Positions 17,023-58,690 of a DNA stretch of 64,000 bases are shown here, one piece after another. The notes beneath the pieces were generated by a model that was not told where the DNA came from, ran no database searches, and was given only the letters and a program-made list of their open reading frames with translations. Numbering within the stretch: the stretch's first letter is position 1; each line of letters begins with the position of its first letter. The position numbers and the translations under genes were made by a program. This DNA comes from Candidatus Hydrogenedentota bacterium. Its GTDB lineage: Bacteria; Hydrogenedentota; Hydrogenedentia; Hydrogenedentales; SLHB01. Location: positions 9,703-73,702 of the forward strand of contig CAIYET010001005.1 in NCBI GenBank assembly GCA_903925285.1. The letters run 5' to 3'.

Positions 17023-17060
17023 AGAGTATGCCCTGGTGGACCCGGGGCAAAGGAAGAAAC

Positions 17061-28062: not shown

Positions 28063-28063
28063 C

Positions 28064-29703: not shown

Positions 29704-29951
29704 TCGTTACCGTCGTCATCAACACTTGCCGCGACTGCCGGTATCTGGGAAGCTCGGGCGGATTCACCCCGGGCGGCCCGTTGCCGGTATGTGAACACGT
29801 CTATGCCTACAAGTACATCGGGCTCTACGGCAAAGAAGAGGGCCGCGATATCCTTTCCGGCAATCACTGGATTCACCGGGTCCCCTTCGCTGACTGGAAC
29901 AAGCCCAAACTGCCCGAGTGGTGCCCGCTCGCCCATGGCTCGAAATACTAA
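29700..29951 (+). CDS. hypothetical Cys-rich protein
   Basis: ATGA overlap, 83 aa, CRDC...C...C pattern. Confidence 0.4.
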   Translation: MIVTVVINTCRDCRYLGSSGGFTPGGPLPVCEHVYAYKYIGLYGKEEGRDILSGNHWIHRVPFADWNKPKLPEWCPLAHGSKY

Positions 29952-29961
29952 GGGGGATGGT

Positions 29962-41301: not shown

Positions 41302-41432
41302 AGGGGCGGCCATGTTGCTTTATCTGGCGGTGCGCCGGCCGCCTATGCGGCATGGATGGATATTTTAGATGAAGTTATAGAGCGTTCCGGGGAGTTCCCA
41401 TGGGAAGCTCACGAAGAAGGGGAGGTCCGATA

Positions 41433-43706
41433 ATGACAAAGATCATTCCGATCGTAGCAGTATCCCGGGGGCTCATGGATCGCTTCCTGAAGGCGCGCTC
41501 CGGCCTTATCCAGCGGCAAACATGGGTCAAGCAGGGGTCCGGCCGCAAGGGCCACTACCGCATGCAATGGATCGACCCTTTTACGGGGTTGCCGGCGGAG
41601 AAAGAGCCCGAGAAGCAGTTCGACCTTTTCTCCGGTCCCGGTCCCGACGGGGCTCCCGACAGCGAGAAGGATCGCCGACAGGCTGAAGAGATGGACGCGG
41701 CCGACCAGCCGGCGGGGGGTGGCAAGGGCGGGCCGCTTATAGACACCATCCAGGTATCGAAGGTGCTGAAGAACCAGATTGAGTTCAAGTACGGGAAAGA
41801 AACCTACGCGCTGGGCTCCCGGCGCGACAACGCTATCGCGCTCAAGACGAAACAGCCCGACGGTAAGTCGTGGTACAACTTCGGCGGAAGCATGAATACC
41901 TACGAGAGCTATGGGGATGTCTGCCGGCTTGCGGAAGACCTTAGCAAGAAGTACGGGAAATACAATGGCGACACGGAGCGTTGGGAATTCAGCGACCCGG
42001 ACAAGCCCGCGAAGACCGGCCAGAAGAAGGATGACGGGAAGTACCAGATTTATCATAGTTCCCTGACCGGGGCTATCGACGAAGTGATAGCGCACCTTGA
42101 GAAGCAGGGCCTATTCATGGACGAAGAGGACATTTTCACCTACATATCGACGGGCGACCGCAAGCCCGGCGAAGGCAAGACCAACCGCTACATGCTCCCC
42201 CTCTTCGATGAGAACGGCACCCCTGCAAAGAAGGCGGTGCAGTTCCAAGTCTACGGCATGGGAAACGGCCGGTACGAGTTGAATATGTATACCACCCCCG
42301 CGAAGGAAACCATCTACAACAAGAATAAGGGCCAGATTCTCGGCACGAAAGACGCCGGCATGGCCGAAGCGATTGATTGGGCCTTCGACAACGGGTACGT
42401 CGACACCGACGGGGTAGTGCCCGGGGAAGTTCGCGGACTCGTAGAAAAGCTGAAAAGCTCCGGGGCTCTGTCCGAAGCTGACGAGAAGGACATGATCGCG
42501 AAGGAAAAGGCCATTGTGGCCAAGGATTCGGACCGGGGGGACAAGAGCCAGTCCGAATCCTCATGGCTTGTCACCGCCATGCAGGAAGGGCTGTATCACA
42601 TGGGCGGCTACGACGTTTCCACGAGAACCGCCGAAAACAGGGAGATAGCGCGCCTCGCGGCCGCCGCGCTCAACAGGTATATCGAAAAGGCCAAGAAACC
42701 GGAAGATGCTCCGGCAAAATCAGACAATAGGGTTATGGAAGAAGAATTAGCAAAATACAACATGGAAAATAGGGAAAAGGTTATTGCAGAAGTAGAGCGT
42801 GTATCTGGCAAGAAATTCGGGGATTTGTCAATGAAAGATCGGATTCGCTTTATGGACGAGGCTCAGGCTACTATTACTAAGAAAGCGAACGAGAAGAAGA
42901 CCCTTGAGGCTATGACTTCAGGGCTCAAGCGCGGCGATGGTATCAAGGTCGTCAAGGACAATGGTACAGAGGTATTCGGAAAGTACAACGGCGTTGAAAA
43001 GAACAACGATGCTTCGTGGCTTCGGATGACTCTCGACAACGGCAATGTCCAAGTGATTCGTTCCGATAGGATATCTTCCGTGGATGCCGGGAAGCCCTCG
43101 GGGGAAGAAGGCAAAAAGCCCTTCAAAACAGGGAAGGTCTCTGAATTGGCAGGTGCCATGCAGACGATCGGGGCAATAAAATCCCCCTATCTTATGCACT
43201 TCCCGAGCGATACATGGGGATTCGTTGGGTCCGTCCCCGGGGAACTTTCCTTGGAACACAAGGATGGAACACTCCTGACAGATGAAGAATATAGTAAAGT
43301 TGCACTCGGGGGGGTGGGACTATACAGGTCGACAATCCAGACAAAGGTATGGAAGACCCCTGAAGAGGCGATGAACGCGGCAAGGGCTTTAGGATATGAT
43401 GCTGACGATCTTGAGTCGGCACAACGGGAAGGGCTAAAGTCGTCCAAAATGAGCGGCGGGGTCGATTCCGTGTCCCTGCGCGATATGTGGGAAGTCCTCG
43501 ACCCGGGGCCGTACTCCGACAACATAGCCGCCTATGAAGACGCGGCGAAGAAGATCAAGGAAAGCGCCGCATCGTGGGCGAGGGAAAACAAGAAGACCGG
43601 CGATGGCATGGCGCTTATCAAGGAATACATGGCGACAAAGGGCATGAAGAAGTCCTTCATGGGCTCCTTCCGCTTGGGACTGGCCAAAGCTCTCGGGAAG
43701 AGGTAG
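41433..43706 (+). CDS. large head-module protein carrying the recurrent N-terminal module (putative virion/ejected protein)
   Basis: ATG (MTKIIPIVAV) after GGGGAGG, in frame with track ORF 41400..43706. N-terminal module SRGLMDRFLKARSGLIQRQTWVKQGSGRKGHYRMQWIDP. The remaining domains are not recognised. Confidence 0.5.
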   Translation: MTKIIPIVAVSRGLMDRFLKARSGLIQRQTWVKQGSGRKGHYRMQWIDPFTGLPAEKEPEKQFDLFSGPGPDGAPDSEKDRRQAEEMDAADQPAGGGKGGPLIDTIQVSKVLKNQIEFKYGKETYALGSRRDNAIALKTKQPDGKSWYNFGGSMNTYESYGDVCRLAEDLSKKYGKYNGDTERWEFSDPDKPAKTGQKKDDGKYQIYHSSLTGAIDEVIAHLEKQGLFMDEEDIFTYISTGDRKPGEGKTNRYMLPLFDENGTPAKKAVQFQVYGMGNGRYELNMYTTPAKETIYNKNKGQILGTKDAGMAEAIDWAFDNGYVDTDGVVPGEVRGLVEKLKSSGALSEADEKDMIAKEKAIVAKDSDRGDKSQSESSWLVTAMQEGLYHMGGYDVSTRTAENREIARLAAAALNRYIEKAKKPEDAPAKSDNRVMEEELAKYNMENREKVIAEVERVSGKKFGDLSMKDRIRFMDEAQATITKKANEKKTLEAMTSGLKRGDGIKVVKDNGTEVFGKYNGVEKNNDASWLRMTLDNGNVQVIRSDRISSVDAGKPSGEEGKKPFKTGKVSELAGAMQTIGAIKSPYLMHFPSDTWGFVGSVPGELSLEHKDGTLLTDEEYSKVALGGVGLYRSTIQTKVWKTPEEAMNAARALGYDADDLESAQREGLKSSKMSGGVDSVSLRDMWEVLDPGPYSDNIAAYEDAAKKIKESAASWARENKKTGDGMALIKEYMATKGMKKSFMGSFRLGLAKALGKR

Positions 43707-43708
43707 CC

Positions 43709-44887
43709 ATGTCGGAAGTCCGTATCAGGGTCCTCGATGTCAACGACGCTAACCGCCGCCTGAAGTTCTCTCGGGCGGTGGAAGGCCTTGCCAAGGCGAT
43801 GCAGATACCCATTACCGTGCGGCCGCGCGACAAGGAAAACGCTGAAAAGTTCGTCTACGCCGCCGAAGAAGAACTGGTAGCGGCATGGAGAAAAGACTTT
43901 GCCAGCGTCCTAGATACGATCTACTTCACCGTCTGTGACGTTCTGGACCTTCCCCGGGTGACGACCTTCTCCAAGGCCATAAGGGAACAGGACCCCGAAC
44001 AGAAGCGCCCGATATCCGAAGCCATATTTTATCACCACAGGGTAATATTCAACCCGGAAACGGGGCTCCCGATCTACCGCGAAGACTTCGAGAAGATCAT
44101 CCACGCGATAGAGCGGTTTCTGAACAAGCGGCTGGACCCGTCGGCGAAGAAGATCGTCCTGCACTCCGTTGCCCTCGGGCGCGTCATGGCGCGGCGGCTT
44201 CTTGCGTTGAACGCGGCCGAAATACGCAAGCTGAAGCTTGAGGAAGTCGTCCACGAGGGCAAGCCGATCGAATGGATGGCAGAGTCCCTTGAAAGGCAGA
44301 ACCGCGCCATGGGGCCGTTGCGCCCTGAAGAGCGGGACCGGCTGTCGGAACACTACAAGCATATTTCGCGCATGGTCGACGTGGCCGAACAGTCCATGGG
44401 GGACCATATCACGCAGATGGAAGAGGACACCGTGCATGCGGTACGGCGCTCGATCATCGACGGGGTAAAGGGCCGATCATCCAAGACAGAGATAGCGCAG
44501 GACCTTTTCAACCGATTCGGGGATCTCAATCGCGATTGGGGGCGCATCGCGGAAACGGAAACGGTGGAATCCTTCAACAATGCTTTCCTGAAGGAAACCG
44601 CCGCCATGGCCGAGCCCGGGGAGAAAGTGTACTTCCGCCGCGTTGAAATGCGCGACGACTATGTATGCTCTTTCTGCGAGAAAATCCGGGGGGAAGTTGC
44701 CCTATATGTAAACTCTCCGCTGTCCGATGACAAGATCGAGGACCCGGTGGCCAAGGTTGCTATCTGGGAGGGCAAGAACAACATCGGCCGCAAGGCCAAG
44801 AACTACTGGATGCCGGCCGGAACGGTCCACCCATGGTGTCGCGGTTCATGGGAAAGATTCTTCCCCGACATGGAGGTAATAGTGTGA
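43709..44887 (+). CDS. MuF / SPP1 gp7-like minor head (head morphogenesis) protein
   Basis: Internal ATG (MSEVRIRVLD) 3 nt after the upstream stop. C-terminal DYVCSFCEKIRGE...PAGTVHPWCRGSWE resembles the conserved HPxCRC end of the Phage_Mu_F domain. Confidence 0.65.
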   Translation: MSEVRIRVLDVNDANRRLKFSRAVEGLAKAMQIPITVRPRDKENAEKFVYAAEEELVAAWRKDFASVLDTIYFTVCDVLDLPRVTTFSKAIREQDPEQKRPISEAIFYHHRVIFNPETGLPIYREDFEKIIHAIERFLNKRLDPSAKKIVLHSVALGRVMARRLLALNAAEIRKLKLEEVVHEGKPIEWMAESLERQNRAMGPLRPEERDRLSEHYKHISRMVDVAEQSMGDHITQMEEDTVHAVRRSIIDGVKGRSSKTEIAQDLFNRFGDLNRDWGRIAETETVESFNNAFLKETAAMAEPGEKVYFRRVEMRDDYVCSFCEKIRGEVALYVNSPLSDDKIEDPVAKVAIWEGKNNIGRKAKNYWMPAGTVHPWCRGSWERFFPDMEVIV

Positions 44888-45870: not shown

Positions 45871-45879
45871 GGGGATGGA

Positions 45880-48800
45880 ATGATCCGCTTGATGATACCC
45901 ATGGAGAACCTTGATACGCTTGAAAAAGCGCGCGCCGGGCTTGTCTACCGAACCGACCTCCCCTATCACCTTTCCAATGGAGCCTTGGCCTTCCGGCGGG
46001 GCTGGGTCCGTCCTGAAGACGTGAAGGCCCTGAATCAGGCGAAGAAACAGGGCGATGCGGCGAGCGTGGTTGGCAAGTATGAATACGAAGCCGATATGTT
46101 CGACGAGGCCGAAGGGGAGCCGTGGGACAGCCCGAAGGCGGAAGCAAAGCCCGAAGATCCGGAAGCCATTGCCGGAAAAGAGAAATGGAACATTTCCGGA
46201 ATGGGCTCCGCAAAGGTTTCGGAATTTGTTGTAGCGGCTCCCGAAGTGAAGACGCCGGAATGGCAAGTATCTGCGGAGCCCGAGAAGTCTAAGGGACATA
46301 TCGCGTTCTTCGGGTCCGGGGAACGGCAAAAAGAGCTTTACCAACTTGATAACGGTGATATCTTCACCGCGTATCTGGGCGAAGTCATAGACATGGACAC
46401 AAAGAACAGGATCGGGCGATGGGAAGGCCCGGGCTGGCAAAAAGACACCATTATGAAAAACCTCGGCATTGTCCAAGAGACAGCCCCCGAGGCGAAGGAA
46501 GAGCCGAAAGAAGCGCCGGCCCTCGATATCCCGGGAGACATCGTTCCGGACGAAATGATCGCCCGGATTGTTCTTTCAGAGCGCCCGGAGGAAGCCCCCG
46601 AGGGATGGATTATTTTCAACGCACCCCGGCCGCTGGTGGGCACGAAGTTCTGGCAGGGCCCTTTCGTGTCCGGGCTTTACTACGCGGCGGTGGACCCTTC
46701 CGACCCGGTAGCCAAAGACTTCATAAGGTCGAACTATCGAGACGGGGCAAGCGTCCTCATGTACCAAACGGAAGAGGCCTATGCCGCCGGCAAGCGGAAG
46801 GAACTCGCGGCCGAATACGAAGACGAATTCAAGAAACATCCGGACCTGAAAGAGTCGTTCGACAAGTACACCGTGGAACAAATCCTCAGTATGGAGCCCC
46901 CCGCTACCACCAAAAAGCTCAAGGATTATCGTAGAGCGATCGAATCGACCTCCGGGGTCAAAACGGACGGGGTAAAGGCCCCGGACGCAGGGGCCAAGCA
47001 GGACGCCCCGGCGGCGGGCAAAACAGAGCCATCGACTATCGCGGAAAGGATATCCAAGCCCGAAATGCCGGACGGTGAAGAAGCGAAGACCGGCGACGTT
47101 CGATCCGACTTGGAACAGGCCATCGCGAAGATGAAGTTCGCGGACTATGGTTCGTGGTCGGCCTCGGGCAAGCACGTCGCGCCGGCGAAGCGCATGGAGT
47201 TGAATCAGCAAATCGCGGAACTCCTCCTCCTGCCCTCGAACGACCTGACGCCGCAAGAGCTTCAGGCCATCCGACAGTATTCAGGGTTCGGCGGCGTCAA
47301 GGCCGACGATGAACGCGGGGTCCTGTACGACTACTTCACGTCGCCCCCGGTGGCGCGCATGGTGTGGAAGCTGGCGAACAAGATCGTGCCCCTGAAGTCC
47401 GGTGCCCGGGCGCTCGAACCTTCCTGCGGGGCCGGCGTGTTCTTCGAGGTAGCGCCGCAAGGTGTCGACCTGACCGGCGTAGAGTTCGACAGCCGCACGT
47501 CGGCCGTGGCGGGGCTCCTGCAACCCCAAGCCCGCATCTACCATTCGTCCTTCGAGCAATTCAACCTCCACCAGAAAGAGAAGTTCGACGCCGTGATAGG
47601 CAACGCGCCCTTCGGCGACCGCTCTGTGGCGACCTCCTTCCTTGATGATCCCGACGAGAAGAGCCTTGACCGATACTTCGTCAGTCGATCGCTCGACAAC
47701 CTGAAGGGCGGCGGGACCATGGCGCTGATTGTCGCGCCCGGGGTGATGGACAATGTGTCCAACTCCGCATGGCGCTCGAAGATGCTCCGGAAGGGGCAAT
47801 TCATCGGCGCGATGCGACTGCCCAACCAGTCCTTCAAGCACACCAATACCGGCGTCTCCCCCGATATCGTCATGTTCCGGGCGTACCCTGAAGACATCAA
47901 GGCAAGGCTCGCGGTCATGTCGGATCAGGAAATGAAGGCCGCCGGCTTCTACGATGACGCATGGGTGGACGGGACCTACTACGACGAGTGCCCGGGGCAC
48001 CGCCTCGGGAGGGTGGAGCGCGGACAATTCGATTCCGAAATCACCGTGGGCAAGCTCGAACCGGCCGACATGGATCGAGCCCTTGAAGTGTTCGAGCCCC
48101 GAGAGCTTCATAGCGCGGAAGACTTCGGGAAGATACGGAACCTGACGCAAGGGACCCTGCCCGAGGCCCCTGATGAAAGCGAGAAGCTTTCCGAGCCCGA
48201 GGCTGAAGCTGTCGCGGCGAAGACCCTGCGCGTGGGGATGACGAAGAGCGAAAACGGGAAGATATACCGCCTGAACGAAAACCACCGATGGGAGCTTGTT
48301 CAAGCAGGAAGCGCGGTGGCGGCAAAGCTCGATCGGGTGAAGGAGATATCGGAAACCGTCCGCAAGATCCGCGAATCCATGCGCGCCGACGAGCCCGTGG
48401 ACGACCTTCAGCGTCAAGCCCGTAGCCTCGTGGAAGCCTATGAAAAGGACTTCGGGGTAAAGCACTCCGAAGACAAGGATATCCAGAAGTTCATCAAGGC
48501 CAACCCGGCGATCGCGAATGTCTACGAAGCCCTGACCATCGCTATAGATTCGGAACTTCTCACGAAGCAGAACGTCTACGACAAGGAAGTGGAAATCGTC
48601 GACGGGCACCGCCCCGCGATTCGCGCGCTCATGGAGCTTCAGCGGGACATGATGGACGCGACGAATGAATCCATCAAGGCCCGGTATCCGAATGGAGCCG
48701 AGGGGCTCATCGAGGCCATGTGGAGCGATCCCGACGTTTTCACTGACGACGCCGGGGTATTCAGGCTCCGCGAAGACTTCATTTCGGGCAACGCATGGGA

Positions 48801-51800
48801 GAAGATAGACGCCCTCGAAAAGGCCGTCGCCGATCACCCCGGGGACGAATGGGTGCGGAACCGCGAAAAGTGGCAAGCCGGCGCGGACGCCATGCGCGAT
48901 GCCGTGGGCTGGATTCCCGTAGAGGACGCCGACGTATTCCCGCAGGGCTCTTGGATTCCCGAAGACCTCATAAACCTCTGGGCTGGAAACGGCATGGGCC
49001 GTCCGGCGCGCAAGGGGTATCGGTACGCCAAGAATGAAGAGGGGAAATGGGGCCTTGCCGCGCTCAAGGGAGATTCCAAGTGGGACTGGAAGACAAGAGA
49101 ATATATCGAGACTAAAGAGGGGGACTGGCAGGAAGAGAACGATGAATTCATATACTTCCTGAACAACCAGAAACAGCGGTCAAAGTATACCGACACCGAA
49201 ACCTACAACAAAAACGCCGTCGGGAACTTCAAGGCATGGCTGGCTACCAATGAAGAGGCGCGCAAGGAAGTAGAGAACCTTTTCAACCGGAACTTCAATA
49301 CCGAACTTGGAGTCCCGACGAAGACCTACGCCGTCCACCTTGACGGATGGAACGATGAAGTGGTCCTTCAGCCGTGGCAATGGCAGACGATCCACCACCT
49401 GTACCGGCAGGGTAAGGGCCTGTCCGCGCTGGGCACGGGGTTCGGAAAGACGCTCGCGGCCGTGGGACTCTACGCGCTCCTGCGGCAGGAAGGAAAGACG
49501 CGGCGCGCTTTCTTCCAAGTGCCGAACAATAAGGTCAAGGATTGGGTGAAGACCTTCGCGAAGGCCATGCCGGGCCTGAAGGTCGGATCGGTGGACCCCG
49601 AGACGAAGGGTTACAACGACCAGACGAAGCGGTTTTCGTGGTATCAGGAACTTGCATCGGGCGATTACGACGTAATTATCCTCCCTGAGTCGTCTTCGAG
49701 CGAGATTCAACTGAATTCCGAGAATGACGACATGATCGTAGCCGACATTTCCTCCCAGATGACGACCACGGAAGGGAAGACCCAGCGGAAGAAGGAACAG
49801 GCCTTGGCCACGGCTGAAGGCAAGCTGTCCGGCGGAAAAAAGAACGTTACGATAACGTTTGAAGAACTAGGGTGCGATACGATTTTCTGCGATGAAATGC
49901 ACCGTATGAAGAATCTGTTCACGTCCAGCCTGTCCCGGGAAACGGGAATGAACGACGGCCGCCGATCGGACCGCGCGCTATCTTTCTTCAAGAAGTGCGA
50001 GTACATGCGCCGGGGCCACGAGGGCAAGGGCGTCTTCGGGCTCACGGCAACCCCGCTCACGAATTCGCCGCTCGAATACTACAACATGTTTTATCACATA
50101 GCCCCGGAAATGCTTTCAAGCATGGGGATCGCGAATATCGACGCTTTCATCAACAACTTCGCCAACATCGAAATGGGTCAAAAGATTGATTCATTCACCG
50201 GGCAAGTGAAGGACGGGAAGGTCCTCAAGGGGTTCAAGAATCTCAGGGCTCTTCAGGATATGTTCTTCAAGTACACCGACCTTCAGAACGATCCCACGAA
50301 GATCGGCCTGAAGAAGCCGACGCCCACGAACCGCCCGAACATCATCCCTATTCAGGAAACGCAGACGGCGGAGATCCGGGCCATAGCGGATGAAGTGAAA
50401 AAGTACCGGGAAATGTCGAAGGAAAAGCGCGCGGACATGCACGAAAACTTCCTGACGTACTATACCCGAATGAGAACCGCGTCCCTCGACCTCGAACTGT
50501 ACGACCCGGTGCGGTTCAAGGGGTGGAAGAATCCGAAGATCGAGAAGATGGTGGACTCGGCCATGGAAACGCTCAATGCGCGCGGCGGCGGGCAAGTAGT
50601 ATTCTGCGATCGCGTTGTTTCCAGCGATGGGACAATAAACATGCACGAGAAGATCAAGGCCGCCCTCGTCGCGAAGGGGTTTGCGGAAAATGAGATTGTC
50701 GTAGTGAATGGGCTCACGAAGTCGGGCACGAAAGCATCAGAACAGTCCCTTGAAAAGGAAGTGTCGTCCGCCATCGACGGGTTTAACTCGGGAAAGTACA
50801 AGATCATCATAGGCACCACGCAGACTATCGGGGAGGGCGTCAACCTTCAAAAGAACTCTTCCGCGCTTCACCACATGGACATCCCCTTCCGTCCCTCAGA
50901 CTTTATCCAGAGGAACGGCCGCATTGACAGGCAGGGGAACAAGCAGTCCACCGTCGAGCTTCATACCTACGCGACAGCCGGGACGATCGACAACTACAGC
51001 ATGGCCCTCGTCGCCGGCAAGGAAAACTGGATTAACCAACTCCTGAAGACGAAATCGAATGTCTTCACGAATCCGAACGGCGAGGGAATGGACATGGACG
51101 AAATCCTGCTGTCCCTCACGCAGGAATGGGGCGACCTGAAGGGCGCTGAAGAGCAGAAGGCGGCTCTAGCATCGAAGAAGGCGGCCGCAATCCAAGCGGA
51201 CAACCAGAAGAAGGCGCATGAATTCTTGCGGCAACTGTCGCTCATGCGCGGGTCCCTGATCGGCTACAAGGGCGACAAGGGGTCCCGGGACTACCAGAAT
51301 CGGTTGCGCAAGATAGACAACCTCGAAGCCGGCCTTCAGACAAACCCCGAATTCCGTCACCCCGAGATATTGGGGCAGGACACGGGACCATTCATGTACG
51401 ACGAGGGCCGCAAGCTCGTGATAAAGAAGGGGGACCTCGTAATATCCAGCGGCGGCGTGTACCGAGTCGCCGACTTTGACTACAAGGAACGGAAATACTT
51501 CTTGCTGTCGGCTATCGACGGGAAGTCGGGGGCCTACGAGAACGCCTATACAAGCGCGACCCAGCGATCGTACTATTCCGGCAACAGCGAGGACAATTTC
51601 ATCTTCGTGCCGAATCCTTCACAACCACAGGTGGATCGGTACATTTCCCTGATCGACCCGGAAGGGTTCTACAAGCAACCGAAAGCCTTCAAGGCGGATA
51701 ACTACGAAGAGTTCGTGAAGATAAACGCCCGTGGGCACAGTATCAAAGAGAAGTATTTCGCCATCAACAAGAAGGGCGAAATTTCAGGGAAGTTGGGAAG

Positions 51801-52287
51801 CCTCTATGAAGGGGAAACCGTGTTCAACCCGTTCACAGACAAGGGGCGCAAGAAGATAAGAGCCCTTGTTTCCGCCGGAAAGGTATCGCCCTCTCAATAT
51901 GAGCGATGGGAGGAGTCTTTCGGGGATCTCGGCGCGCGCGATATTCTCCACGAATCGGCGATTAAGGTATTCGATGCCCAGCCCCTTGCAAAGCCGGTCA
52001 TGGCCGCTTTCGACAAGGCCCCAAAGCTTTCCGACAGTTACTATAGGCACAATGATTGGGTCAACGTTGCGGACTTGGCAACGGAAATAGGGGAAGCCGA
52101 CGTTGACAACGTGGAGGAAGTTCTTAAAAAGCACCCCGACATAGAGACATCCTATCAGCTTGTCGGAGCTGGTCGCCGCTATGATCTTTATGCCCGCCGC
52201 AAGGGGGGGGTGCAAAAAGCATTGGGACACAGTAAAATAGTCGTAAAGGGGGAGCAAGTCTATGTACTACACGAACGAAGAAGTTGA
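45880..52287 (+). CDS. DarB-like polyvalent protein: N6-adenine DNA methyltransferase + SNF2/DExH helicase (2135 aa)
   Basis: MTase motif I LEPSCGAGVF (about nt 47413) and motif IV GNAPFG (about nt 47599). Helicase motifs GTGFGKT (about 49430), DEMH (49891), TATPLTNS, and QRNGRIDRQG (about 50908). N-terminal recurrent module. Confidence 0.8.
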   Translation: MIRLMIPMENLDTLEKARAGLVYRTDLPYHLSNGALAFRRGWVRPEDVKALNQAKKQGDAASVVGKYEYEADMFDEAEGEPWDSPKAEAKPEDPEAIAGKEKWNISGMGSAKVSEFVVAAPEVKTPEWQVSAEPEKSKGHIAFFGSGERQKELYQLDNGDIFTAYLGEVIDMDTKNRIGRWEGPGWQKDTIMKNLGIVQETAPEAKEEPKEAPALDIPGDIVPDEMIARIVLSERPEEAPEGWIIFNAPRPLVGTKFWQGPFVSGLYYAAVDPSDPVAKDFIRSNYRDGASVLMYQTEEAYAAGKRKELAAEYEDEFKKHPDLKESFDKYTVEQILSMEPPATTKKLKDYRRAIESTSGVKTDGVKAPDAGAKQDAPAAGKTEPSTIAERISKPEMPDGEEAKTGDVRSDLEQAIAKMKFADYGSWSASGKHVAPAKRMELNQQIAELLLLPSNDLTPQELQAIRQYSGFGGVKADDERGVLYDYFTSPPVARMVWKLANKIVPLKSGARALEPSCGAGVFFEVAPQGVDLTGVEFDSRTSAVAGLLQPQARIYHSSFEQFNLHQKEKFDAVIGNAPFGDRSVATSFLDDPDEKSLDRYFVSRSLDNLKGGGTMALIVAPGVMDNVSNSAWRSKMLRKGQFIGAMRLPNQSFKHTNTGVSPDIVMFRAYPEDIKARLAVMSDQEMKAAGFYDDAWVDGTYYDECPGHRLGRVERGQFDSEITVGKLEPADMDRALEVFEPRELHSAEDFGKIRNLTQGTLPEAPDESEKLSEPEAEAVAAKTLRVGMTKSENGKIYRLNENHRWELVQAGSAVAAKLDRVKEISETVRKIRESMRADEPVDDLQRQARSLVEAYEKDFGVKHSEDKDIQKFIKANPAIANVYEALTIAIDSELLTKQNVYDKEVEIVDGHRPAIRALMELQRDMMDATNESIKARYPNGAEGLIEAMWSDPDVFTDDAGVFRLREDFISGNAWEKIDALEKAVADHPGDEWVRNREKWQAGADAMRDAVGWIPVEDADVFPQGSWIPEDLINLWAGNGMGRPARKGYRYAKNEEGKWGLAALKGDSKWDWKTREYIETKEGDWQEENDEFIYFLNNQKQRSKYTDTETYNKNAVGNFKAWLATNEEARKEVENLFNRNFNTELGVPTKTYAVHLDGWNDEVVLQPWQWQTIHHLYRQGKGLSALGTGFGKTLAAVGLYALLRQEGKTRRAFFQVPNNKVKDWVKTFAKAMPGLKVGSVDPETKGYNDQTKRFSWYQELASGDYDVIILPESSSSEIQLNSENDDMIVADISSQMTTTEGKTQRKKEQALATAEGKLSGGKKNVTITFEELGCDTIFCDEMHRMKNLFTSSLSRETGMNDGRRSDRALSFFKKCEYMRRGHEGKGVFGLTATPLTNSPLEYYNMFYHIAPEMLSSMGIANIDAFINNFANIEMGQKIDSFTGQVKDGKVLKGFKNLRALQDMFFKYTDLQNDPTKIGLKKPTPTNRPNIIPIQETQTAEIRAIADEVKKYREMSKEKRADMHENFLTYYTRMRTASLDLELYDPVRFKGWKNPKIEKMVDSAMETLNARGGGQVVFCDRVVSSDGTINMHEKIKAALVAKGFAENEIVVVNGLTKSGTKASEQSLEKEVSSAIDGFNSGKYKIIIGTTQTIGEGVNLQKNSSALHHMDIPFRPSDFIQRNGRIDRQGNKQSTVELHTYATAGTIDNYSMALVAGKENWINQLLKTKSNVFTNPNGEGMDMDEILLSLTQEWGDLKGAEEQKAALASKKAAAIQADNQKKAHEFLRQLSLMRGSLIGYKGDKGSRDYQNRLRKIDNLEAGLQTNPEFRHPEILGQDTGPFMYDEGRKLVIKKGDLVISSGGVYRVADFDYKERKYFLLSAIDGKSGAYENAYTSATQRSYYSGNSEDNFIFVPNPSQPQVDRYISLIDPEGFYKQPKAFKADNYEEFVKINARGHSIKEKYFAINKKGEISGKLGSLYEGETVFNPFTDKGRKKIRALVSAGKVSPSQYERWEESFGDLGARDILHESAIKVFDAQPLAKPVMAAFDKAPKLSDSYYRHNDWVNVADLATEIGEADVDNVEEVLKKHPDIETSYQLVGAGRRYDLYARRKGGVQKALGHSKIVVKGEQVYVLHERRS

Positions 52288-52642
52288 CTCCTTCGAGAAA
52301 AAAGTGCAAATCCGGACCGGGGAATCCTACGTCCGGAAGATCGCCCTCGGGGTCGCCTCGATGCTTGAGGCTCAGCCATCCCTTTACAAGACCTTCGGCG
52401 TTTACTGGTGGGCAATCAAGGCCGCGCTCAAGAAATACTACCCCGGCAAGGCGTGGTTCATGGGGGGATATTTCGATCAACTCATGTACGAGCGGGCATG
52501 GCATGGATCGCTTTTCCGCACCGTACTGGCGGCAACTATCTACCATGGCAATCATCGGCTCATAACTTCAGGGCACGAATACATCGGGAAGGATGAAGAG
52601 GAGTATACCTATACGCTCTTCGATGAAGACGCAGGGTTTTAG
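52262..52642 (+). CDS. hypothetical protein
   Basis: GGGGGAG RBS. 126 aa. Overlaps the last 26 nt of the 2135-aa gene. Trp/Tyr-rich. Lacks the recurrent module. Confidence 0.45.
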   Translation: MYYTNEEVDSFEKKVQIRTGESYVRKIALGVASMLEAQPSLYKTFGVYWWAIKAALKKYYPGKAWFMGGYFDQLMYERAWHGSLFRTVLAATIYHGNHRLITSGHEYIGKDEEEYTYTLFDEDAGF

Positions 52643-52652
52643 GCGGGGGGAT

Positions 52653-53939
52653 ATGCGAATAATCTTAGTGGTTCCAGTATCGCGGGAAAGGATGCTGAAG
52701 GCTCTCAATACATCCCGCCTCGTCAAGAAAGAAGTCACCGTTCGGCGCGGCGGGAAGACATTCCAGCAAATGCGCTGGCTTCGCCCTGACCAAGTGGCCC
52801 CCGGGAGGAAGCCGTCCGCCCCTGTGGAACAGAAGCCGGCGCGGGAAAGCAAGCCCGTCGACAACTCCCACCCCCGGATAAAAAAAGACGATCCTGTATT
52901 GTTCAACTATCAGGGGAAGCAGATTCAGGCGAAAGTCATCGACGATACCCATAAAGAGGGCGTTGTCGCTCAGAGCGAGTCCGGGGAAAAGTTCAACGTC
53001 CGCTGGCAGGACATGGCGAAGAAGGCCGCCCCCGAGGCCGCCGCACTGCCAGAGGACAACGTACAGGCTCAGGTTGCGTGGATGATCGACCCCAGCCGGA
53101 CCGACAATTCCAAGAAGATCGACAAGAAACTCCTCGTCCAGCCGTCCGGGGATCTCGATGAACTCTACAAGCTGGCAGAGGAAGCCCGCGCCGGTTTCAG
53201 GCAGTTCATGGAGAAGGCCAAGAGCGATCTAGGGGCAAAGGCGCTTCTTTCCCGGCCTGTCCTGAAGAGCAAAGAGCGTATCCTTGAGAAGATGAAAGAG
53301 GACGGGGTTACGGATGCAAGCCAGATTTACGACATTGACGGCCATACCCTTGTGTTCGACGGCCTAGACGGGGTAGCGAAGGGGCTGAAGTATTTCATGG
53401 CGCAGGGCGCGGCAATCAGGATCAAGAACAACTATGCCAACCCTTCACCCGCCGGATACCGGGACGTGAATGTCAACATCAAGCTTCCTAACGGGATGAT
53501 ATCAGAGATCCAGATAAACACTGAAGCGATGATGGAGGCAAAGGAAGGGGTGGGGCATATCTTCTACGAGGTCATGCGCGAGGCTCTTGGAGCCCTGCCG
53601 CCCCCGCCGCCCCCGGCACCGTATGCTGATATACTGGAAGCACAAAAGGCTTTCTATAATTTCGCGTGGGAAACGTCACAGAAGGGTCAGGAAGACGCCA
53701 ACCTCAAGGCCTCGCTCTTGTCGATCGCGCGGCCTTTCTGGAACAAGTCGGCGAACAACTTGGGGGAGCGGGATTCAAGCTGGTTGTCGGACAAAACGCG
53801 GAAGAGGTTCATGGACTTCGGTTCCCAAGCGAATGGAACATCGTCCTTCTCGAAGAACTCAAGTCCCTCGGTCGTCAAGTCTATCTTGGGCATCTTGTTC
53901 CCTCCACGCTCAAAGTATAGACGCGGTTTCCGGGCATGA
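52653..53939 (+). CDS. RelA/SpoT-homologue (small alarmone synthetase-like nucleotidyl pyrophosphokinase) domain protein with the recurrent N-terminal module
   Basis: Internal ATG (MRIILVVPVS) in frame with track ORF 52593..53939. Synthetase-domain pattern LKSKERILEKM...IYDIDGHTLVF...NPSPAGYRDVNVNIKLPNGMISEIQINTEAMMEAKEGVGHIFYE, to be compared with RelA_SpoT KSxxSIxxK / DxxGxR / GYRSxH / EIQIRT...H..Y. Confidence 0.7.
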   Translation: MRIILVVPVSRERMLKALNTSRLVKKEVTVRRGGKTFQQMRWLRPDQVAPGRKPSAPVEQKPARESKPVDNSHPRIKKDDPVLFNYQGKQIQAKVIDDTHKEGVVAQSESGEKFNVRWQDMAKKAAPEAAALPEDNVQAQVAWMIDPSRTDNSKKIDKKLLVQPSGDLDELYKLAEEARAGFRQFMEKAKSDLGAKALLSRPVLKSKERILEKMKEDGVTDASQIYDIDGHTLVFDGLDGVAKGLKYFMAQGAAIRIKNNYANPSPAGYRDVNVNIKLPNGMISEIQINTEAMMEAKEGVGHIFYEVMREALGALPPPPPPAPYADILEAQKAFYNFAWETSQKGQEDANLKASLLSIARPFWNKSANNLGERDSSWLSDKTRKRFMDFGSQANGTSSFSKNSSPSVVKSILGILFPPRSKYRRGFRA

Positions 53940-56900
53940 CAAGTAAGGCGGCAACTTTTATGGAAAAGGCTCTCGACCGCTCGAAACTCATAAAGACGCC
54001 GACGATCATGCACGTCGACGGCAAAGCCTTCCCGACATACCGCTGGAAGGCGCGGCCCGAAGCAGAGCCCGCAGAGCCACCCCGGGCGGAAGCCCCGCCC
54101 GCCGGCTATGTCCCTACGAAGACCGTAACGTCCTACAAGCTCTTCCGGGTAAGCAAGGATCATCCCGGGGAAATCTTCCCGCTGTTCGTTGACGCCAACA
54201 CCCCCATACCCTTCGGCGAATGGGTGGCGGCCAAGCCCGGCGACAGGGACCCCAAGGTAACGGACCATGTGAAATCCAAGCTGGGACCCCTAGCCTATCG
54301 CCCCGGCTTCCATGCCGGCAGAATCCCCGTCGCTACCCATATCGGGCTGAAGGTGAAGAAAAACGACAAGGCCCCATCCTTCCGCAACCCTGATTATGTA
54401 TGGGCTGAAGTAACCTTCGCCGATGACGTTGACTGGCAGTCCGAAGCCGCTCGCCGGGCTGTCCGGGGGAAGGATGGACAGGTCATAGCGCGGACCGCCC
54501 ATATCACCGATCAAGTTCCGTATGGGGGGTACTACTCTTACAAGACGAACTCGAATATGACGGGCGAGTGGATGATATCGGGGACCATGAAGGTAAACCG
54601 CATCCTGACCGACGCCGAAGTGGCCGAAATCAACGAAAAGACGAAGTTTTCGGACCTCCCAAGGGTTGAACCGCTTGATATCTCCGTGTATGGGTTCGGC
54701 AAAGACGGCCGGCCGGCAAAGTCTGTCCAACTACTTCCGGATAGGGACTTCTACGACTATCAAGACTCGCACATGGAGAAGACCCATAAGCGCCTTTTCT
54801 ACATTGACGACTTGGACAACCAATACGCTGAATGGATCGAGAACGCTGGCGACATAGGCCGGGAACTTGCCTCGCATCAAGAAACAGCCGACCCCTTGTA
54901 CATTGGGGAAAAGCTCCGGAAGTTGTCGAAGGTCTTTATATTCGCCGAGTCCTCCCGGGCCGATCTGGGCTTTGTTGATACCAGCTTTTCTTTCCCGAAG
55001 ACCGATAGGGCGATAATCAAGGAATATGTCCGGCAATACGATGAATATAAGGGAAATCTAGGGGTGCTGGGGCAAGCATCGAAGTCGCTTTCTTATGCGT
55101 TATTGTCGAGGAATGGCCCCATGTTCCTTGAGGCTTTTATAGATTTTGTCGCGAAATACAACGTCCTGAAACAATCGCAGGGGTTCGAGAAGACAAAGCT
55201 TCCCGATAGCCTATCCCGCCTCGTCGACGACAGGATGCAGAAATATGGGGCTCCTTCCCCGGTAGCGCCCAAAGAGGATGACAGCGAATTCAAGCGGGCC
55301 GGAAAGACCGTCGACGGCCTTGAAGTGCTGGACGATATCCCGAACACATCGTCGATAGGCTCTTCCTTGAACGAATATGAATCCCTCCCGGGGATTCGTG
55401 AAGTTCCCATGAGCGTGTTCAGTGATCCAGATCCGTATAAAAATTACTATGCGGCCGACGATATCGACCGGACATACCGGCTGGCTGAAGAAATAAAACA
55501 ATCCGGACAGATTAAGCCGCTGATTGTCGTGATGGACAAGAAGGGTCCCTATATCCTAGAGGGCGGGCACCGCTGGTCGGCGCTGGGGGTTCTCGGGAAG
55601 AAGTCTTTCCCAGCTCTTGTGGTGATGGACACGGAAGACACCGGCGTTGAAAAGGCCCTCGATTATTCAAAGCTCTCCAAGGTGCCCGTCGTCGCGCATG
55701 CCAAGGTGGGGGACTATCAAACCTCCCGATGGAAGAAGAGGGAAGAGCCGGCGGCCGCCCCTAACCCGGCTCCCGTGCAGAGTGTGGCGGACTTCATTTC
55801 GTTCATGTACCAGCTTCCCCGAAACGCCGTGAATCAAGTGAACATTGAAAAGATCGACGATATAGACCCCGCGCTTGCGGAGGAACTTCGCAACAACAAG
55901 GAAGTGTTCAAGAAAAAGCTCTGTTACAACAACTCTTGGCAAGCGGCGTCGATGGCCGATGGCATTGGGAAAAAAGTGAACTATGTGGAGGGTTTTGTCG
56001 CCCTTGGTGTCGGCGGTTGCATGATCCCAATAGACCACGCTTGGAACTCGATAGAGGTGAACGGAGAAACAAAGTATTTCGACGTTACCAACGATATCGT
56101 ATGGGGCGGCGATATGTCGGTTCAAAAAAACGGATACGTCCCCCTATATGCAACGGACGACCTTCTCACCATAGGAAAATATATAGGGCGAAGCCCGGTG
56201 ACAAAGGCTTTCGAGGCCATGCGCAAGATTCGGGCCGCCGCCCGGGATTCCGACATGCCGCCCTCTTTCGCGTCCGTTCTTTCCACCCTGAAGGATAAGG
56301 TGGGCGAGGTCAAGAAGTCCCTGACCTACGGCGGGCACCCCCTTGAGGACCGCTACAAGGTTCACGGCATGGATATCTCGATCGAGACAAAGAAGGGCTC
56401 CACGCGGCGCGGGACCGACAAGGACGGGCACGAGTGGGCGACGAAAATGAACGCCGACTACGGGTATATCCGGGGCACCGTGGGCAAGGATAAAGACCAT
56501 CTTGATTGCTATGTCGGCCCGAATCCTGAATCCACGAAGGTTTTCATAGTCCATCAAAACGATCCGACGACAGGGAAGTATGACGAAGACAAGGTTATGC
56601 TCGGGTTCGAGTCGGCCGCCGAGGCCAAGGCGCTCTACATGAAGCAGTACGACCGCCCGGGGTTCTTTGGCTCGATGGATGAAACCGATATCGAGAAGAT
56701 GAAGGAAAGGGCGTTCTCCAAAGAGGCCAAAGGCAGGATTCTTGTGGTCAAGTCCGTCGACGGGGAACTGGAAGAGCGGGCCGGCAAGGGATATTCCCGG
56801 CTGGACAAGCTCATCGAAAGGAAGTATGGGCCGGAAGTAATGATAGGAGTAGAAGTGGAGTTGGAGCATACTGGAAGCCGCGAAGAGGCCAAGAGGATCG

Positions 56901-58690
56901 CGCTCGATCACCTTCATCAAGACTATCACTATTACTCGAAGCTCATTGCGGCCGGGCTTGTCGATGAGCCAAGGGCTCTGGCGATAGCGAAAGAGGAAGG
57001 TGTCGATATGAAGAAGTCGCTACGGCTTATGGTCCCGATTCTCGACAAGGCCATGAAGTCCTCGAAGCTGATCCTTCAAACGAAGATGGTCACGCGCGAG
57101 GGCACGACCTTCCCGATGAAGGTGTGGGTCCTGCCCGGGGAAGCGAGCCATGCCGCGCAGTTCGATATGTTCGAGGCGGCCGAAGTGGACGACACGGTGA
57201 AGAAGATCGCCCCCCGGGAGCCCGAGCGAGATCCCGTGAAGATCGAGGCGGCTATCCAGTCGGCAACCCCCGAAACCCGCAACGAGGTCCAAGCGGTCCT
57301 GTTTGGAGCGAAGGAGGAGGAGCCCGAGGCCGCCGAGCCCCCGTATGAGTTCACCCCGGGACGCCGCACGGTTTCGGCCTACAATGGGCATGGCTACACG
57401 AGTCAGGAGGAGCTAGAAGACTATACTGGCGTATTCCCTAAGAGAATGAAGCTGATTCGGCAAGCCAAGGCCCTCAACGATCCGCGCCCTTCATGGATAC
57501 CGGCGGCCGACGAGGGAGCTTTCTCTGGGTGGAAATGGGAGCGCCGATTCCCGTATGCGAGGATCGCCCCTAACGAATATGTTGTTCAGGTCACGAAGGA
57601 AAAGATGGTGATTATGAGCGCGGACGTGCTGATAGCCACCACGAACTACTACAAGGCGAGGGAAAAAGAGCGCCGGAGGATTGAAGCAGACAAGTGGAAT
57701 CAGGACAAGAGGGAACGTGCAAGAATATGGCTGGAAGAACACAAGAACGACGACGACGATAAGAACCGGGAATTTAGATATAAATCCAATATCAAATACT
57801 ATCGCGAAGTAGTAGATGGAAAGAGGTTTCAGAAACCCAAGGCTGTCGTTGCCATGGGTTCAAACAAAATGTGCCATGACCAATCGTGTATCATCAAGAA
57901 ATACTCCGAAGACGATGACTATTCCATGTGGACCCATCTTCACGATGCCATGGAAGAGCTTGACCAGAAAGCGATCGACATGCAACTTCAGGCCGAAGAC
58001 GATGGTAACACCTACTCGAAGGGGGAAAAGACCTCCTACGGGAACATGGGTACGAAGGACACCCTGCTTGAGAAGTACGGCGTCAAGGTCAAGCGGCAGA
58101 ACGGGAAAGAGATTACCGATACCGAAACCGAAGAGATAAAGGCCGCCTTGGACCACATATTTTCCATTTTCGGCGACAGGTCTTCCATGGCGCGCACGTT
58201 CGGGCTGAAGATATCCCATGCGGCCGAAACCGCCATGCACGCTCGAAAGGCAATCGGAATCTTCTTCCCCTCCCATCGGGCTATCGGCGTGTCGGCCGGC
58301 GGCGGGGCGAAGCAGTTCGGGTTCACCCTTTCCCACGAGTGGGCGCACTTCATGGACAACTACCTTGGGGGGGACAAGTACCACTATTCCTCGGACGACT
58401 TCAAGTCCATTTCCCACGCGATAGCGAATACCTTCAAGTCGAATATGGCGAAGAAACAGAAGAGCGACTACCAGAACCGGACATGCGAGTGCTTCGCCCG
58501 GGCCTTCGAGCAATACTTTGCCATGAAGACCGGGGATGGCGACGAATACCAGCGGATGATGTCTGACGCCGGGAACCACCCCTCGAACGATGTTTTCCTG
58601 AAAGAAGTGTCCCCGCTGATAGATAGATTTTTTTCCGAGCGCGGCGATATGCTGAAGGCCATGAAGATTACTTTGTGGTCAATAAGATAG
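53936..58690 (+). CDS. 1584-aa polyvalent protein with ParB/Srx-like, transglutaminase-like Cys peptidase, PPase-like and HExxH zincin domains
   Basis: ATGA overlap. ParB-like KPLIVVMDKKGPYILEGGHRWSAL (about nt 55530). Cys/His/Asp triad candidates CYNNSWQAA ... IDHAWNSIEVNGETKYFDVT (about 55920-56090). YGYIRGTVGKDKDHLDCYVGP (PPase-like, about 56460). LSHEWAHFMD plus CECFARAFEQYF (about 58330-58510). Three copies of the recurrent module. Confidence 0.75.
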   Translation: MTSKAATFMEKALDRSKLIKTPTIMHVDGKAFPTYRWKARPEAEPAEPPRAEAPPAGYVPTKTVTSYKLFRVSKDHPGEIFPLFVDANTPIPFGEWVAAKPGDRDPKVTDHVKSKLGPLAYRPGFHAGRIPVATHIGLKVKKNDKAPSFRNPDYVWAEVTFADDVDWQSEAARRAVRGKDGQVIARTAHITDQVPYGGYYSYKTNSNMTGEWMISGTMKVNRILTDAEVAEINEKTKFSDLPRVEPLDISVYGFGKDGRPAKSVQLLPDRDFYDYQDSHMEKTHKRLFYIDDLDNQYAEWIENAGDIGRELASHQETADPLYIGEKLRKLSKVFIFAESSRADLGFVDTSFSFPKTDRAIIKEYVRQYDEYKGNLGVLGQASKSLSYALLSRNGPMFLEAFIDFVAKYNVLKQSQGFEKTKLPDSLSRLVDDRMQKYGAPSPVAPKEDDSEFKRAGKTVDGLEVLDDIPNTSSIGSSLNEYESLPGIREVPMSVFSDPDPYKNYYAADDIDRTYRLAEEIKQSGQIKPLIVVMDKKGPYILEGGHRWSALGVLGKKSFPALVVMDTEDTGVEKALDYSKLSKVPVVAHAKVGDYQTSRWKKREEPAAAPNPAPVQSVADFISFMYQLPRNAVNQVNIEKIDDIDPALAEELRNNKEVFKKKLCYNNSWQAASMADGIGKKVNYVEGFVALGVGGCMIPIDHAWNSIEVNGETKYFDVTNDIVWGGDMSVQKNGYVPLYATDDLLTIGKYIGRSPVTKAFEAMRKIRAAARDSDMPPSFASVLSTLKDKVGEVKKSLTYGGHPLEDRYKVHGMDISIETKKGSTRRGTDKDGHEWATKMNADYGYIRGTVGKDKDHLDCYVGPNPESTKVFIVHQNDPTTGKYDEDKVMLGFESAAEAKALYMKQYDRPGFFGSMDETDIEKMKERAFSKEAKGRILVVKSVDGELEERAGKGYSRLDKLIERKYGPEVMIGVEVELEHTGSREEAKRIALDHLHQDYHYYSKLIAAGLVDEPRALAIAKEEGVDMKKSLRLMVPILDKAMKSSKLILQTKMVTREGTTFPMKVWVLPGEASHAAQFDMFEAAEVDDTVKKIAPREPERDPVKIEAAIQSATPETRNEVQAVLFGAKEEEPEAAEPPYEFTPGRRTVSAYNGHGYTSQEELEDYTGVFPKRMKLIRQAKALNDPRPSWIPAADEGAFSGWKWERRFPYARIAPNEYVVQVTKEKMVIMSADVLIATTNYYKAREKERRRIEADKWNQDKRERARIWLEEHKNDDDDKNREFRYKSNIKYYREVVDGKRFQKPKAVVAMGSNKMCHDQSCIIKKYSEDDDYSMWTHLHDAMEELDQKAIDMQLQAEDDGNTYSKGEKTSYGNMGTKDTLLEKYGVKVKRQNGKEITDTETEEIKAALDHIFSIFGDRSSMARTFGLKISHAAETAMHARKAIGIFFPSHRAIGVSAGGGAKQFGFTLSHEWAHFMDNYLGGDKYHYSSDDFKSISHAIANTFKSNMAKKQKSDYQNRTCECFARAFEQYFAMKTGDGDEYQRMMSDAGNHPSNDVFLKEVSPLIDRFFSERGDMLKAMKITLWSIR

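Follow-up and report, generated by a model that had tools for sequence, protein, structure and literature searches.

A stand-alone gene for a RelA/SpoT-homologue (RSH) pyrophosphokinase was identified in a 64,000-nucleotide stretch of DNA (hereafter, the window) from contig CAIYET010001005.1 of the Candidatus Hydrogenedentota bacterium assembly GCA_903925285.1 (positions 9,703 to 73,702). The window is a myovirus-like phage genome, and the gene (52653..53939, forward strand; 428 amino acids) lies among its head and polyvalent-protein genes. The encoded domain has the identity and fold of an RSH synthetase, conserves the catalytic residues, is closest to the (p)ppApp synthetase effector Tas1 and carries the signature of adenosine 3'-pyrophosphokinases (Apk). 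Its gene keeps its syntenic position in related loci, has a cassette architecture and occupies a slot that is polymorphic between relatives. By analogy with described phage systems, we narrowly favour a role as a packaged, co-injected, ATP-consuming (p)ppApp synthetase, which would enter the host along with the phage DNA.

Identification of the RSH catalytic domain

The gene boundaries given by the original prediction, which had been made from the DNA letters alone, proved right. The mechanical open reading frame (ORF) spans 52593-53939 and 448 amino acids, whilst the ATG at 52653 comes after the upstream gene's stop codon (52640-52642) and a Shine-Dalgarno-like stretch rich in G, and is the start used by the identical public protein P0001 (428 amino acids). 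Residues are numbered here on the 428-residue protein; adding 20 gives the numbering of the 448-residue ORF. The TGA stop codon (53937-53939) and the next gene's ATG (53936) overlap as ATGA. A minus-strand ORF overlapping the 3' end of the gene (53687-54268) was rejected as spurious, being without support (best E = 0.25).

The catalytic domain (residues ~160-345, 53130..53687, forward strand) was delimited using Pfam, PDB profile searches, Foldseek and clade alignments, and includes a poly-Pro loop and a conserved AQKxxY helix. Residues 225-322 of the 448-residue ORF matched Pfam RelA_SpoT (PF04607) with E = 2.7e-8 and 34.5 bits. The original prediction had named a profile search against this family as a test that could overturn its assignment of an RSH synthetase domain; the match was significant and above the curated cut-off of 27 bits. 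Searched against the PDB, the single RSH sequence retrieved Tas1 (6OX6) with E = 8.8e-7. A profile of the family core retrieved the same entry (6ox6) with E = 9.7e-15 and 58 bits, compared to values of 1e-7 to 1e-5, and at most 33 bits, for RelSeq, RelP/SAS2, RelQ and RelA.

Structural comparison gave the same answer. Modelling with AlphaFold2, which had also been proposed at the outset, used 21 sequences and returned an alarmone-synthetase (Pol-beta-like nucleotidyltransferase) fold, with a mean predicted local distance difference test score (pLDDT) of 78 and >90 over the RSH catalytic core. All 50 Foldseek matches listed against the PDB were RSH synthetases, with a probability of 1.0. Tas1 was the best among the leading single-domain matches listed (template-modelling (TM) score 0.70, target-normalised; root-mean-square deviation (rmsd) 3.5 Å; 23% identity). 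The predicted synthetase domain was thus borne out by Pfam, PDB profiles and Foldseek, and its RSH identity is real and well past chance.

Catalytic motifs and an Apk-type signature

Conservation was scored in a family alignment of 15 homologues (76% to 29% identity, including the protein of Bordetella phage PHB04) and in a clade alignment of 186 members. The motifs quoted in the original prediction were present and aligned to syn1-syn5, all on the forward strand. Syn1, KSKERILEK (53265..53291), is the ATP-phosphate binding motif; its K205, R209 and K213 were invariant in the family and occurred as K/R/K in ~180/186 clade members. Syn2 reads DIDGHT (53331..53348), in which D227 aligns with RelSeq D264 and T232 takes the place of the canonical Arg, as in the Tas1 motif DLARNT. 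In syn3, GYRDVN (53454..53471), Y269 aligns with RelSeq Y308 and N273 replaces the canonical His (cf. Tas1 GYSGVN). In syn4, EIQINT (53505..53522), E285 aligns with RelSeq E323 and N289 replaces the canonical Arg (cf. Tas1 EIQVNS).

Twelve residues were invariant in 15/15 family members: K205, R209, K213, D227, G268, Y269, E285, Q287 and, in syn5, K297, H302, Y305 and R309. The HMMER alignment matched D227 and E285 to the catalytic carboxylates D264 and E323 of RelSeq. Hence all of the catalytic residues whose absence would have spoken against the assignment (D227, E285 and the syn1 K/R/K) were there, and the catalytic residues were kept in ~180/186 clade members. Since the motif residues are invariant in the family and retained in nearly all of this wider set, the RSH domain looks catalytically intact and is likely active.

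The non-canonical positions were equally consistent across the 186 clade members. The residue at syn2+5 was T (104) or S (73), never R; that at syn3+4 was N, L or M, never H; and that at syn4+4 was H (124) or N (50), never R. T232, N273 and N289 are of the same type as Tas1 T311, N349 and N365. The published signature separating adenosine 3'-pyrophosphokinases from canonical RSH enzymes is RYT vs AVR, GxN vs SxH and YH vs IR (PMC12226406). The Thr noted by the original prediction in the DxxGxR strand is therefore a genuine substitution; the view of it as a deviation did not hold, as it is a signature of the (p)ppApp-synthetase-like clade. Because Tas1, Apk2 and all 186 clade members also lack Arg at this position, the change, judged from the alignments, marks membership of an Apk-like clade and not decay.

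Architecture of the RSH protein

The protein begins with a 'leader', here termed the junction module (residues ~5-46, 52665..52790, forward strand), which was defined by iteration of a hidden Markov model (HMM) and in the AlphaFold model comprises a helix (11-20) and a beta-hairpin (24-43). Its consensus is VVPV..x..KALNTS+LVKKxVxVxRxGKTFxxxRWVxP. Residues 47-75 are disordered in the model. These are followed by a small SH3-like beta-barrel (residues ~78-120, 52884..53012, forward strand), recognised from the alignment, the model and RSH_SH3 matches in the related loci L002 and L003. Its four modelled strands (residues 81-117) have a pLDDT of ~86-91, confirming the small beta-rich segment originally described; no library family matched it. 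The barrel is optional, being missing from P0010-P0012, and it occurs with the same leader on a Zeta-toxin protein, P0015.

The poly-Pro stretch (residues 313-320), previously taken to be a linker between domains, forms a loop within the extended catalytic domain. The helix that follows it, EAQKAFYNFAWE, is conserved across the wider clade: Q331 and Y335 were invariant in the 15-sequence family alignment, and Y335 was still invariant in an 84-sequence clade alignment. The separate C-terminal region postulated beyond the poly-Pro stretch accordingly stands in part. The helix belongs to the catalytic domain and only residues ~346 onward are specific to the subfamily.

This subfamily-specific extension (residues ~346-400, 53688..53852, forward strand; alignment and model) has the pattern NLKASL..ARPFW..SSWLSDKTRKRF.DFGSQA and is modelled as two helices with a pLDDT of 74-88. 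It is conserved in P0001-P0013, moves with the RSH core in fused cassettes and had no match in Pfam, NCBIfam or the PDB. The last ~30 residues (53853..53936, forward strand; alignment and model) form a disordered Ser-rich tail ending KSILGILFPPRSKY. This ending resembles the start of a junction module (cf. the N-terminal RIILVVPVSRERM), and in P0010 and L009-L013 the reading frame runs on past the tail into the next junction and domain.

Junction modules and polyvalent cassettes

Iterating the leader HMM on the window and four related loci recovered 22 copies, which established both that the shared leader is real and that, as predicted, it is common to neighbouring head-block and polyvalent proteins. 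Within the window, copies stand at the N-termini of a 768-residue protein (ORF start 41400), a 345-residue protein (ORF start 44833) and the RSH protein (52653), with three more in a 1584-residue polyvalent protein (residues 7-47, 567-606 and 1037-1073). The module is a helix-plus-hairpin of ~40 residues with the general form VVPV..KALxxS+LVxKxVxVxRxGxxYxxxxWVxP (window 41400-58690; L002-L005, L009-L013). It marks the N-terminus of all proteins in the block and stands ahead of each effector domain there, whether at a protein N-terminus or between the domains of polyvalent proteins. No Pfam family matched the junction module, and neither it nor the C-terminal extension matched any Pfam LPD family. 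The module could be a capsid-targeting or protease-processing signal, and delivery of the RSH protein by the virion can reasonably be inferred from a leader shared with head-block and polyvalent effectors.

In five loci from IMG/VR (L009-L013), the order junction - RSH core - C-terminal extension - junction is found in-frame inside ORFs of 1255-2068 amino acids, several of which also hold InPase and zincin-peptidase regions. P0010, P0013, P0056 and P0061 are further RSH fusions with InPase and DUF5661. The window RSH protein has one catalytic domain only. Given these in-frame fusions in sister loci and the ATGA overlap with the gene for the 1584-residue protein, the stand-alone gene appears from sequence comparison to be a cassette that elsewhere forms part of one polyvalent protein. 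In more distant IMG/VR relatives (L017, 1990-12540; L020, 1210-12129), ORFs of >3500 amino acids join an RSH core in-frame to a DarB-like methyltransferase/helicase that follows it. The InPase domain of P0061 (1695 amino acids) is split by an intein with a LAGLIDADG endonuclease, and the InPase match of L013 (8758-10239) is likewise in two pieces.

The position after the Ulx-like gene was not always occupied by RSH. In L003 (10001-11494), a Zeta_toxin/AAA_33 kinase (P0015) replaces it in the same slot, and the leader and SH3 segment of P0015 share 58% identity with the RSH protein over that part. By this comparison, the slot behaves as a polymorphic effector slot.

Genomic neighbourhood and probable host

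The block containing the RSH gene runs, in order, portal, 768-residue protein, MuF-like protein, 345-residue protein, DarB-like protein, Ulx-like protein, RSH and 1584-residue polyvalent protein, with the following members identified on the forward strand. It starts with a portal protein (39586..41301; PHROG portal, 1.5e-35; Pfam Phage_portal, 1.2e-8 and 35.0 bits, below the curated cut-off of 39.1). A MuF-like head-morphogenesis protein (43574..44887) was recognised by phrog_758 (8.7e-6), and its equivalents in L004 and L005 match Pfam Phage_Mu_F weakly. The DarB-like protein (45880..52287; 2135 amino acids) combines an N6-methyltransferase and a helicase (Pfam N6_Mtase, Eco57I, ResIII and Helicase_C) and gave collinear BLASTP matches to phage P1 DarB with E = 2e-34, 9e-19 and 3e-15. 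The Ulx-like protein (52262..52642; 126 amino acids) matched phrog_1629 (5.1e-15) and P1 Ulx (E = 4e-6). Downstream of RSH, the 1584-residue polyvalent protein (53936..58690) contains three junctions, a ParB_N-like region, InPase, DUF5661 and a C-terminal HEWAH zincin-like peptidase. The HEWAH motif lies at residues ~1460-1480, where there is a weak Pfam LPD1 match, and would fit the self-processing peptidase proposed for polyvalent proteins.

This arrangement was maintained among relatives. The order MuF - (DarB) - Ulx - effector - InPase polyvalent was kept in L002-L005 and L009-L013; a Ulx-like gene stood directly upstream of the effector slot in L002-L005, L007 and L009-L013; and linkage of portal/terminase genes with the polyvalent domain vocabulary was kept in L001-L005 and L007-L014. 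Just downstream of the effector block of L003 lies a diversity-generating retroelement (14287-17868; Mtd_N, bAvd, RVT_1).

Elsewhere in the window are baseplate and tail-fibre genes (1-11 kb), SbcC-like and RecT-like genes (15-18 kb), TerL (25442-27031) and a sigma-70 region-4 protein (29791-30531). The latter is one of a scattered set (27108-28534, 29791-30531, 33966-34628) that also includes two small Anti-TRAP/DnaJ-type zinc-finger-like ORFs and a DUF5131/radical-SAM-like protein. No close cultured phage was found, TerL and portal having at most 35% and 29% identity, respectively, to those of any cultured phage.

The bacterial genome collection contained only two related loci, both in Treponema metagenome-assembled genomes (MAGs), so the host is probably a spirochaete (Treponema). 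One 232-kb Treponema MAG contig has a phage-like region with the order terminase - InPase - LPD3/ddrB-ParB - RSH - RnlA toxin - tail sheath. A prophage state is possible for some relatives. The phages of the window's group may be virulent or temperate. In L008 (Treponema MAG contig CAJUBD010000002.1), the RnlA (RNase LS) toxin gene occupies 11005-12066, with effector genes on one side and the tail sheath gene on the other.

Occurrence of the clade and of candidate immunity genes

HMMER, run exhaustively against 1.84 billion cluster representatives, returned 12,433 matches at E<=1e-3, 720 of them at E<=1e-30. Pfam analysis of 84 top matches revealed fusions to phage portal proteins (8 matches) as well as to baseplate hub/gp5, eCIS core, InPase, ART-PolyVal, PBECR1, Zeta toxin, NUDIX and HD_4 domains. 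P0052 (2115 amino acids) carries both MuF and RSH. Phage proteins of the same fold in BFVD are named "RelA/SpoT", "Tas1", ART-PolyVal-like or DdrB-like.

The cultured Bordetella phage PHB04 (L001, MF663786; region 14671-17631) encodes its RSH homologue directly after the portal gene. This protein (ATI15652.1), annotated as 'hypothetical', matches Pfam RelA_SpoT with 4.4e-7 and 30.6 bits, and its gene is followed by a 69-residue ORF, an HD_4 protein (3.3e-21) and a metallophosphatase. The HD_4 protein is small-alarmone-hydrolase-like and is annotated as a bifunctional ppGpp synthetase/hydrolase. As gene arrangements go, that of PHB04 seems to echo the Apk2-IapK-Aph1 triad. An HD protein also directly follows the RSH ORF in L028, and among the loci fetched only PHB04 and L028 had an HD hydrolase adjoining or near the RSH gene.

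Comparable genes were sought in the window. Neither the HD_4 nor the 69-residue protein of PHB04 matched window ORFs of at least 40 amino acids (phmmer), and Pfam on 20 further window ORFs, with those at ~11-25 kb partly scanned, returned no HD, NUDIX or MazG. No immunity gene was found beside RSH in the close relatives. The small ORFs downstream of RSH in L004 (77 amino acids), L008 (75) and PHB04 (69) were considered as one immunity family and rejected, as they were not significantly similar to one another; nor did they show significant similarity to the C-terminal extension of the window protein.

Comparison with known systems

The original prediction recognised no precedent for an RSH enzyme in an apparently injected head-protein block. 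This claim does not stand. Phage-type polyvalent proteins with RelA/SpoT domains, with spirochaete (pro)phages named among their sources, were reported by Iyer et al. (2017; PMC5512222), and Jamet et al. (2017) listed RelA-like MuF toxins and hypothesised head loading (PMC5576092). Biochemical work has demonstrated (p)ppApp synthesis by MuF-fused Apk2 enzymes (Ahmad et al. 2023, PMC10083569; Paulet et al. 2025, PMC12226406), which immunity proteins of the Tis1/IapK-like and Aph1 types neutralise (PMC10083569, PMC12226406). A paper on injected anti-restriction proteins (PMC12373910) contains nothing on Dar, polyvalent or alarmone enzymes. The RSH effector is a new example of a described arrangement, not a new kind of system. 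Its distinctive features are the stand-alone split cassette, the Dar-like block, the lack of any immunity gene found, the DIDGHT/EIQINT subclade, the private C-terminal extension and the junction module.

Tas1 (Apk1), the (p)ppApp synthetase effector of the Pseudomonas aeruginosa type VI secretion system, is the closest solved structure by profile and shares with the window protein syn1 KSxERxxxK, a syn2 ending in T, syn3 GYxxxN and syn4 EIQxN(S/T). Both are toxin domains on a trafficking module, with delivery established for Tas1 and presumed here. However, Tas1 has a PAAR/Rhs N-terminus, is exported by type VI secretion and has the Tis1 immunity gene downstream, whereas the window protein has a phage junction and SH3-like N-terminus and a syn2 Gly-His in place of the Tas1 Arg-Asn. 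No PAAR or Rhs match was found on the window RSH protein, and the next gene encodes the InPase polyvalent protein, not Tis1.

The Apk2 enzymes of temperate phages (Bacteroides caccae, S. pneumoniae, M. haemolytica) are also phage-encoded Apk-type domains in the head-morphogenesis region, are predicted capsid cargo and have T at syn2, N at syn3 and no Arg at syn4. In Apk2, however, MuF is fused to the enzyme, whereas in the window it is a separate gene (43574-44887) and there is no Phage_Mu_F on the RSH protein. Downstream of Apk2 lie IapK/Tis1-like and, in many cases, Aph1 immunity genes, none of which were found in the window or its close relatives.

With the polyvalent RelA/SpoT proteins of Iyer et al., the present family has in common a portal/terminase-linked block, spirochaete (pro)phage hosts and the companion domains InPase, DUF5661, ParB-like, zincin peptidase, DarB-type methylase/helicase, Zeta toxin and ART. 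Those proteins are multi-domain, in contrast to the separate single-catalytic-domain gene of the window. The Dar system of phage P1 (DarB, Ulx, DdrB, DarA, Hdf) resembles the block in having DarB and Ulx homologues, in the same order, by the portal gene. In P1, DarB and Ulx are internal head proteins injected with the DNA. P1 has no RSH enzyme, and no DarA or Hdf homologue was identified in the window. The toxic small alarmone synthetases (toxSAS; FaRel, FaRel2, PhRel2, CapRel) have the same fold and are growth-arresting pyrophosphokinases of biological conflict, and FaRel also makes (p)ppApp. They differ in that they work in the cytoplasm, as toxin-antitoxin or defence modules whose antitoxin is fused or encoded alongside, as opposed to an offensive phage effector block. 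A CapRel-like defence reading was discarded, as PADLOC gave only PDC-S33 at E = 0.004 and nothing meaningful.

Proposed role and alternative explanations

According to the role we favour, the RSH protein would be made late in infection, packaged in the capsid together with its DarB-like, Ulx-like and InPase/peptidase neighbours, and would enter the host (probably Treponema) along with the DNA. There, the enzyme would move the beta,gamma-pyrophosphate of ATP to the 3'-OH of ATP, ADP or AMP, generating (p)ppApp. This would lower ATP and ADP and block purine synthesis, so that host metabolism and ATP-dependent defences might be briefly stalled while the phage genome establishes. Packaging and injection are suggested by neighbours homologous to P1 DarB and Ulx together with the polyvalent-protein literature, and the (p)ppApp product by similarity to Tas1 and Apk2. 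The physiological role of the effector is inferred.

Several points weigh against this proposal. Virion packaging of the RSH protein is read from gene context, and the 1584-residue neighbour could not be upheld as a DdrB homologue (BLASTP against P1 DdrB, not significant). No Tis1/IapK-like or HD-hydrolase immunity gene was present among the scanned window ORFs, so that the producing cell would itself be exposed to the ATP drain late in infection; inhibition in cis by the C-terminal extension, or quick sequestration into proheads, might protect it. A drain on ATP at entry would also harm the phage unless the activity were brief or local. With regard to the product, the residue at syn2+3 is Gly in the window's subclade (41/186) and Arg in Tas1 and most of the clade; combined with the Thr at +5, this means that there is no Arg anywhere in the syn2 strand of the subclade, although His231 may stand in for it. 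Because swaps of syn motifs failed to turn Apk2 into a ppGpp synthetase (PMC12226406) and SaEAS, a Tas1-like exported enzyme, makes both (p)ppApp and (p)ppGpp (PMC12691689), product and acceptor specificity are not certain from sequence alone.

A packaged enzyme might accordingly produce (p)ppGpp, or both alarmones, and act through a stringent-like response, reprogramming host RNA polymerase and stopping host replication and translation, a role proposed by Iyer et al. (PMC5512222). Foldseek showed the fold to be common with the ppGpp synthetases SAS1, SAS2 and Rel, Tyr269 (aligned to RelSeq Tyr308) is conserved, and SaEAS, despite its structural likeness to Tas1, prefers guanine acceptors (PMC12691689). 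Even so, the syn2 R, syn3 H and syn4 R positions are all non-canonical here and across the 186 clade members, and the profile scores Tas1 ~25 bits above any ppGpp synthetase, leading us to regard this product as unlikely. The same three substitutions could be taken as signs that the RSH fold has decayed, lost catalysis and been retained for structure or packaging. We consider this highly improbable, as the active enzymes Tas1 and Apk2 have the same syn2-syn4 substitutions and the catalytic and phosphate-binding residues are invariant across homologues down to 27% identity.

A different acceptor was rated as distinctly improbable. Enzymes of the same fold among the toxSAS use tRNA (PMC12691689), and modification of the tRNA 3'-CCA end, as by CapRel, FaRel2 and PhRel2, would stop host translation; more speculatively, the acceptor could be a defence signalling nucleotide with a free 3'-OH. 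The odd syn2 strand (DIDGHT, no Arg) and the extra C-terminal helices could reshape the acceptor site, and CapRel (7ztb) appeared at rank 17 among the listed Foldseek matches, but this match was poor (TM 0.33/0.40, rmsd 14 Å). No tRNA-pyrophosphokinase chain (CapRel, FaRel2) was retrieved from the PDB by the family profile at E<=1 or by the single protein at E<=10, and PADLOC defence models gave nothing meaningful. The enzyme might also not be injected at all and instead act in the producing cell or lysogen, as a prophage toxin that is released at lysis and serves competition among bacteria, or with a superinfection-exclusion or abortive function. The roles of MuF/Apk2 toxins are debated (PMC10083569), the relative on the 232-kb Treponema MAG contig looks like a prophage, and the HD hydrolases near RSH in PHB04 and L028 are reminiscent of toxin-immunity modules. 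Set against this, close relatives have no immunity gene, the cassette occurs within polyvalent proteins (DarB, InPase, peptidase) by portal and MuF genes, which is a packaged-protein context, and a partial scan of the window ORFs found no integrase. Action outside the injection route therefore seems to us rather unlikely.

Implications

A broader extension of the favoured role as an injected (p)ppApp synthetase can be put forward, tentatively and as a doubtful proposition when taken as a whole. The stand-alone (p)ppApp synthetase would be packaged beside DarB and Ulx as part of an anti-restriction kit, with cargo addressed by the junction module and a self-silencing C-terminal extension. A few injected copies would collapse ATP locally or briefly, disabling type I/III restriction, helicase-nuclease systems and AAA+ abortive systems. 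The junction module would be an unnamed capsid-targeting or processing signal defining a new polymorphic family of injected effectors, in which RSH and Zeta toxin would be interchangeable in one slot. The C-terminal extension would silence the enzyme until it is packaged or cleaved, and would stand in for a separate immunity gene.

The concept of phage-delivered RSH enzymes is already known, and the value of the present family is that of a tractable example rather than the discovery of a principle. The Apk2 papers explicitly ask whether (p)ppApp synthetases of phages travel in virions and what role they have on entry. The RSH family described here offers a clean test case, consisting of a stand-alone single-domain gene, with no adjacent immunity gene found, in a DarB/Ulx-like block, and PHB04 provides a cultured distant relative usable for proteomics. 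Finally, the junction module and the RSH/Zeta slot could define the way in which cargo is directed to the capsid in these phages.

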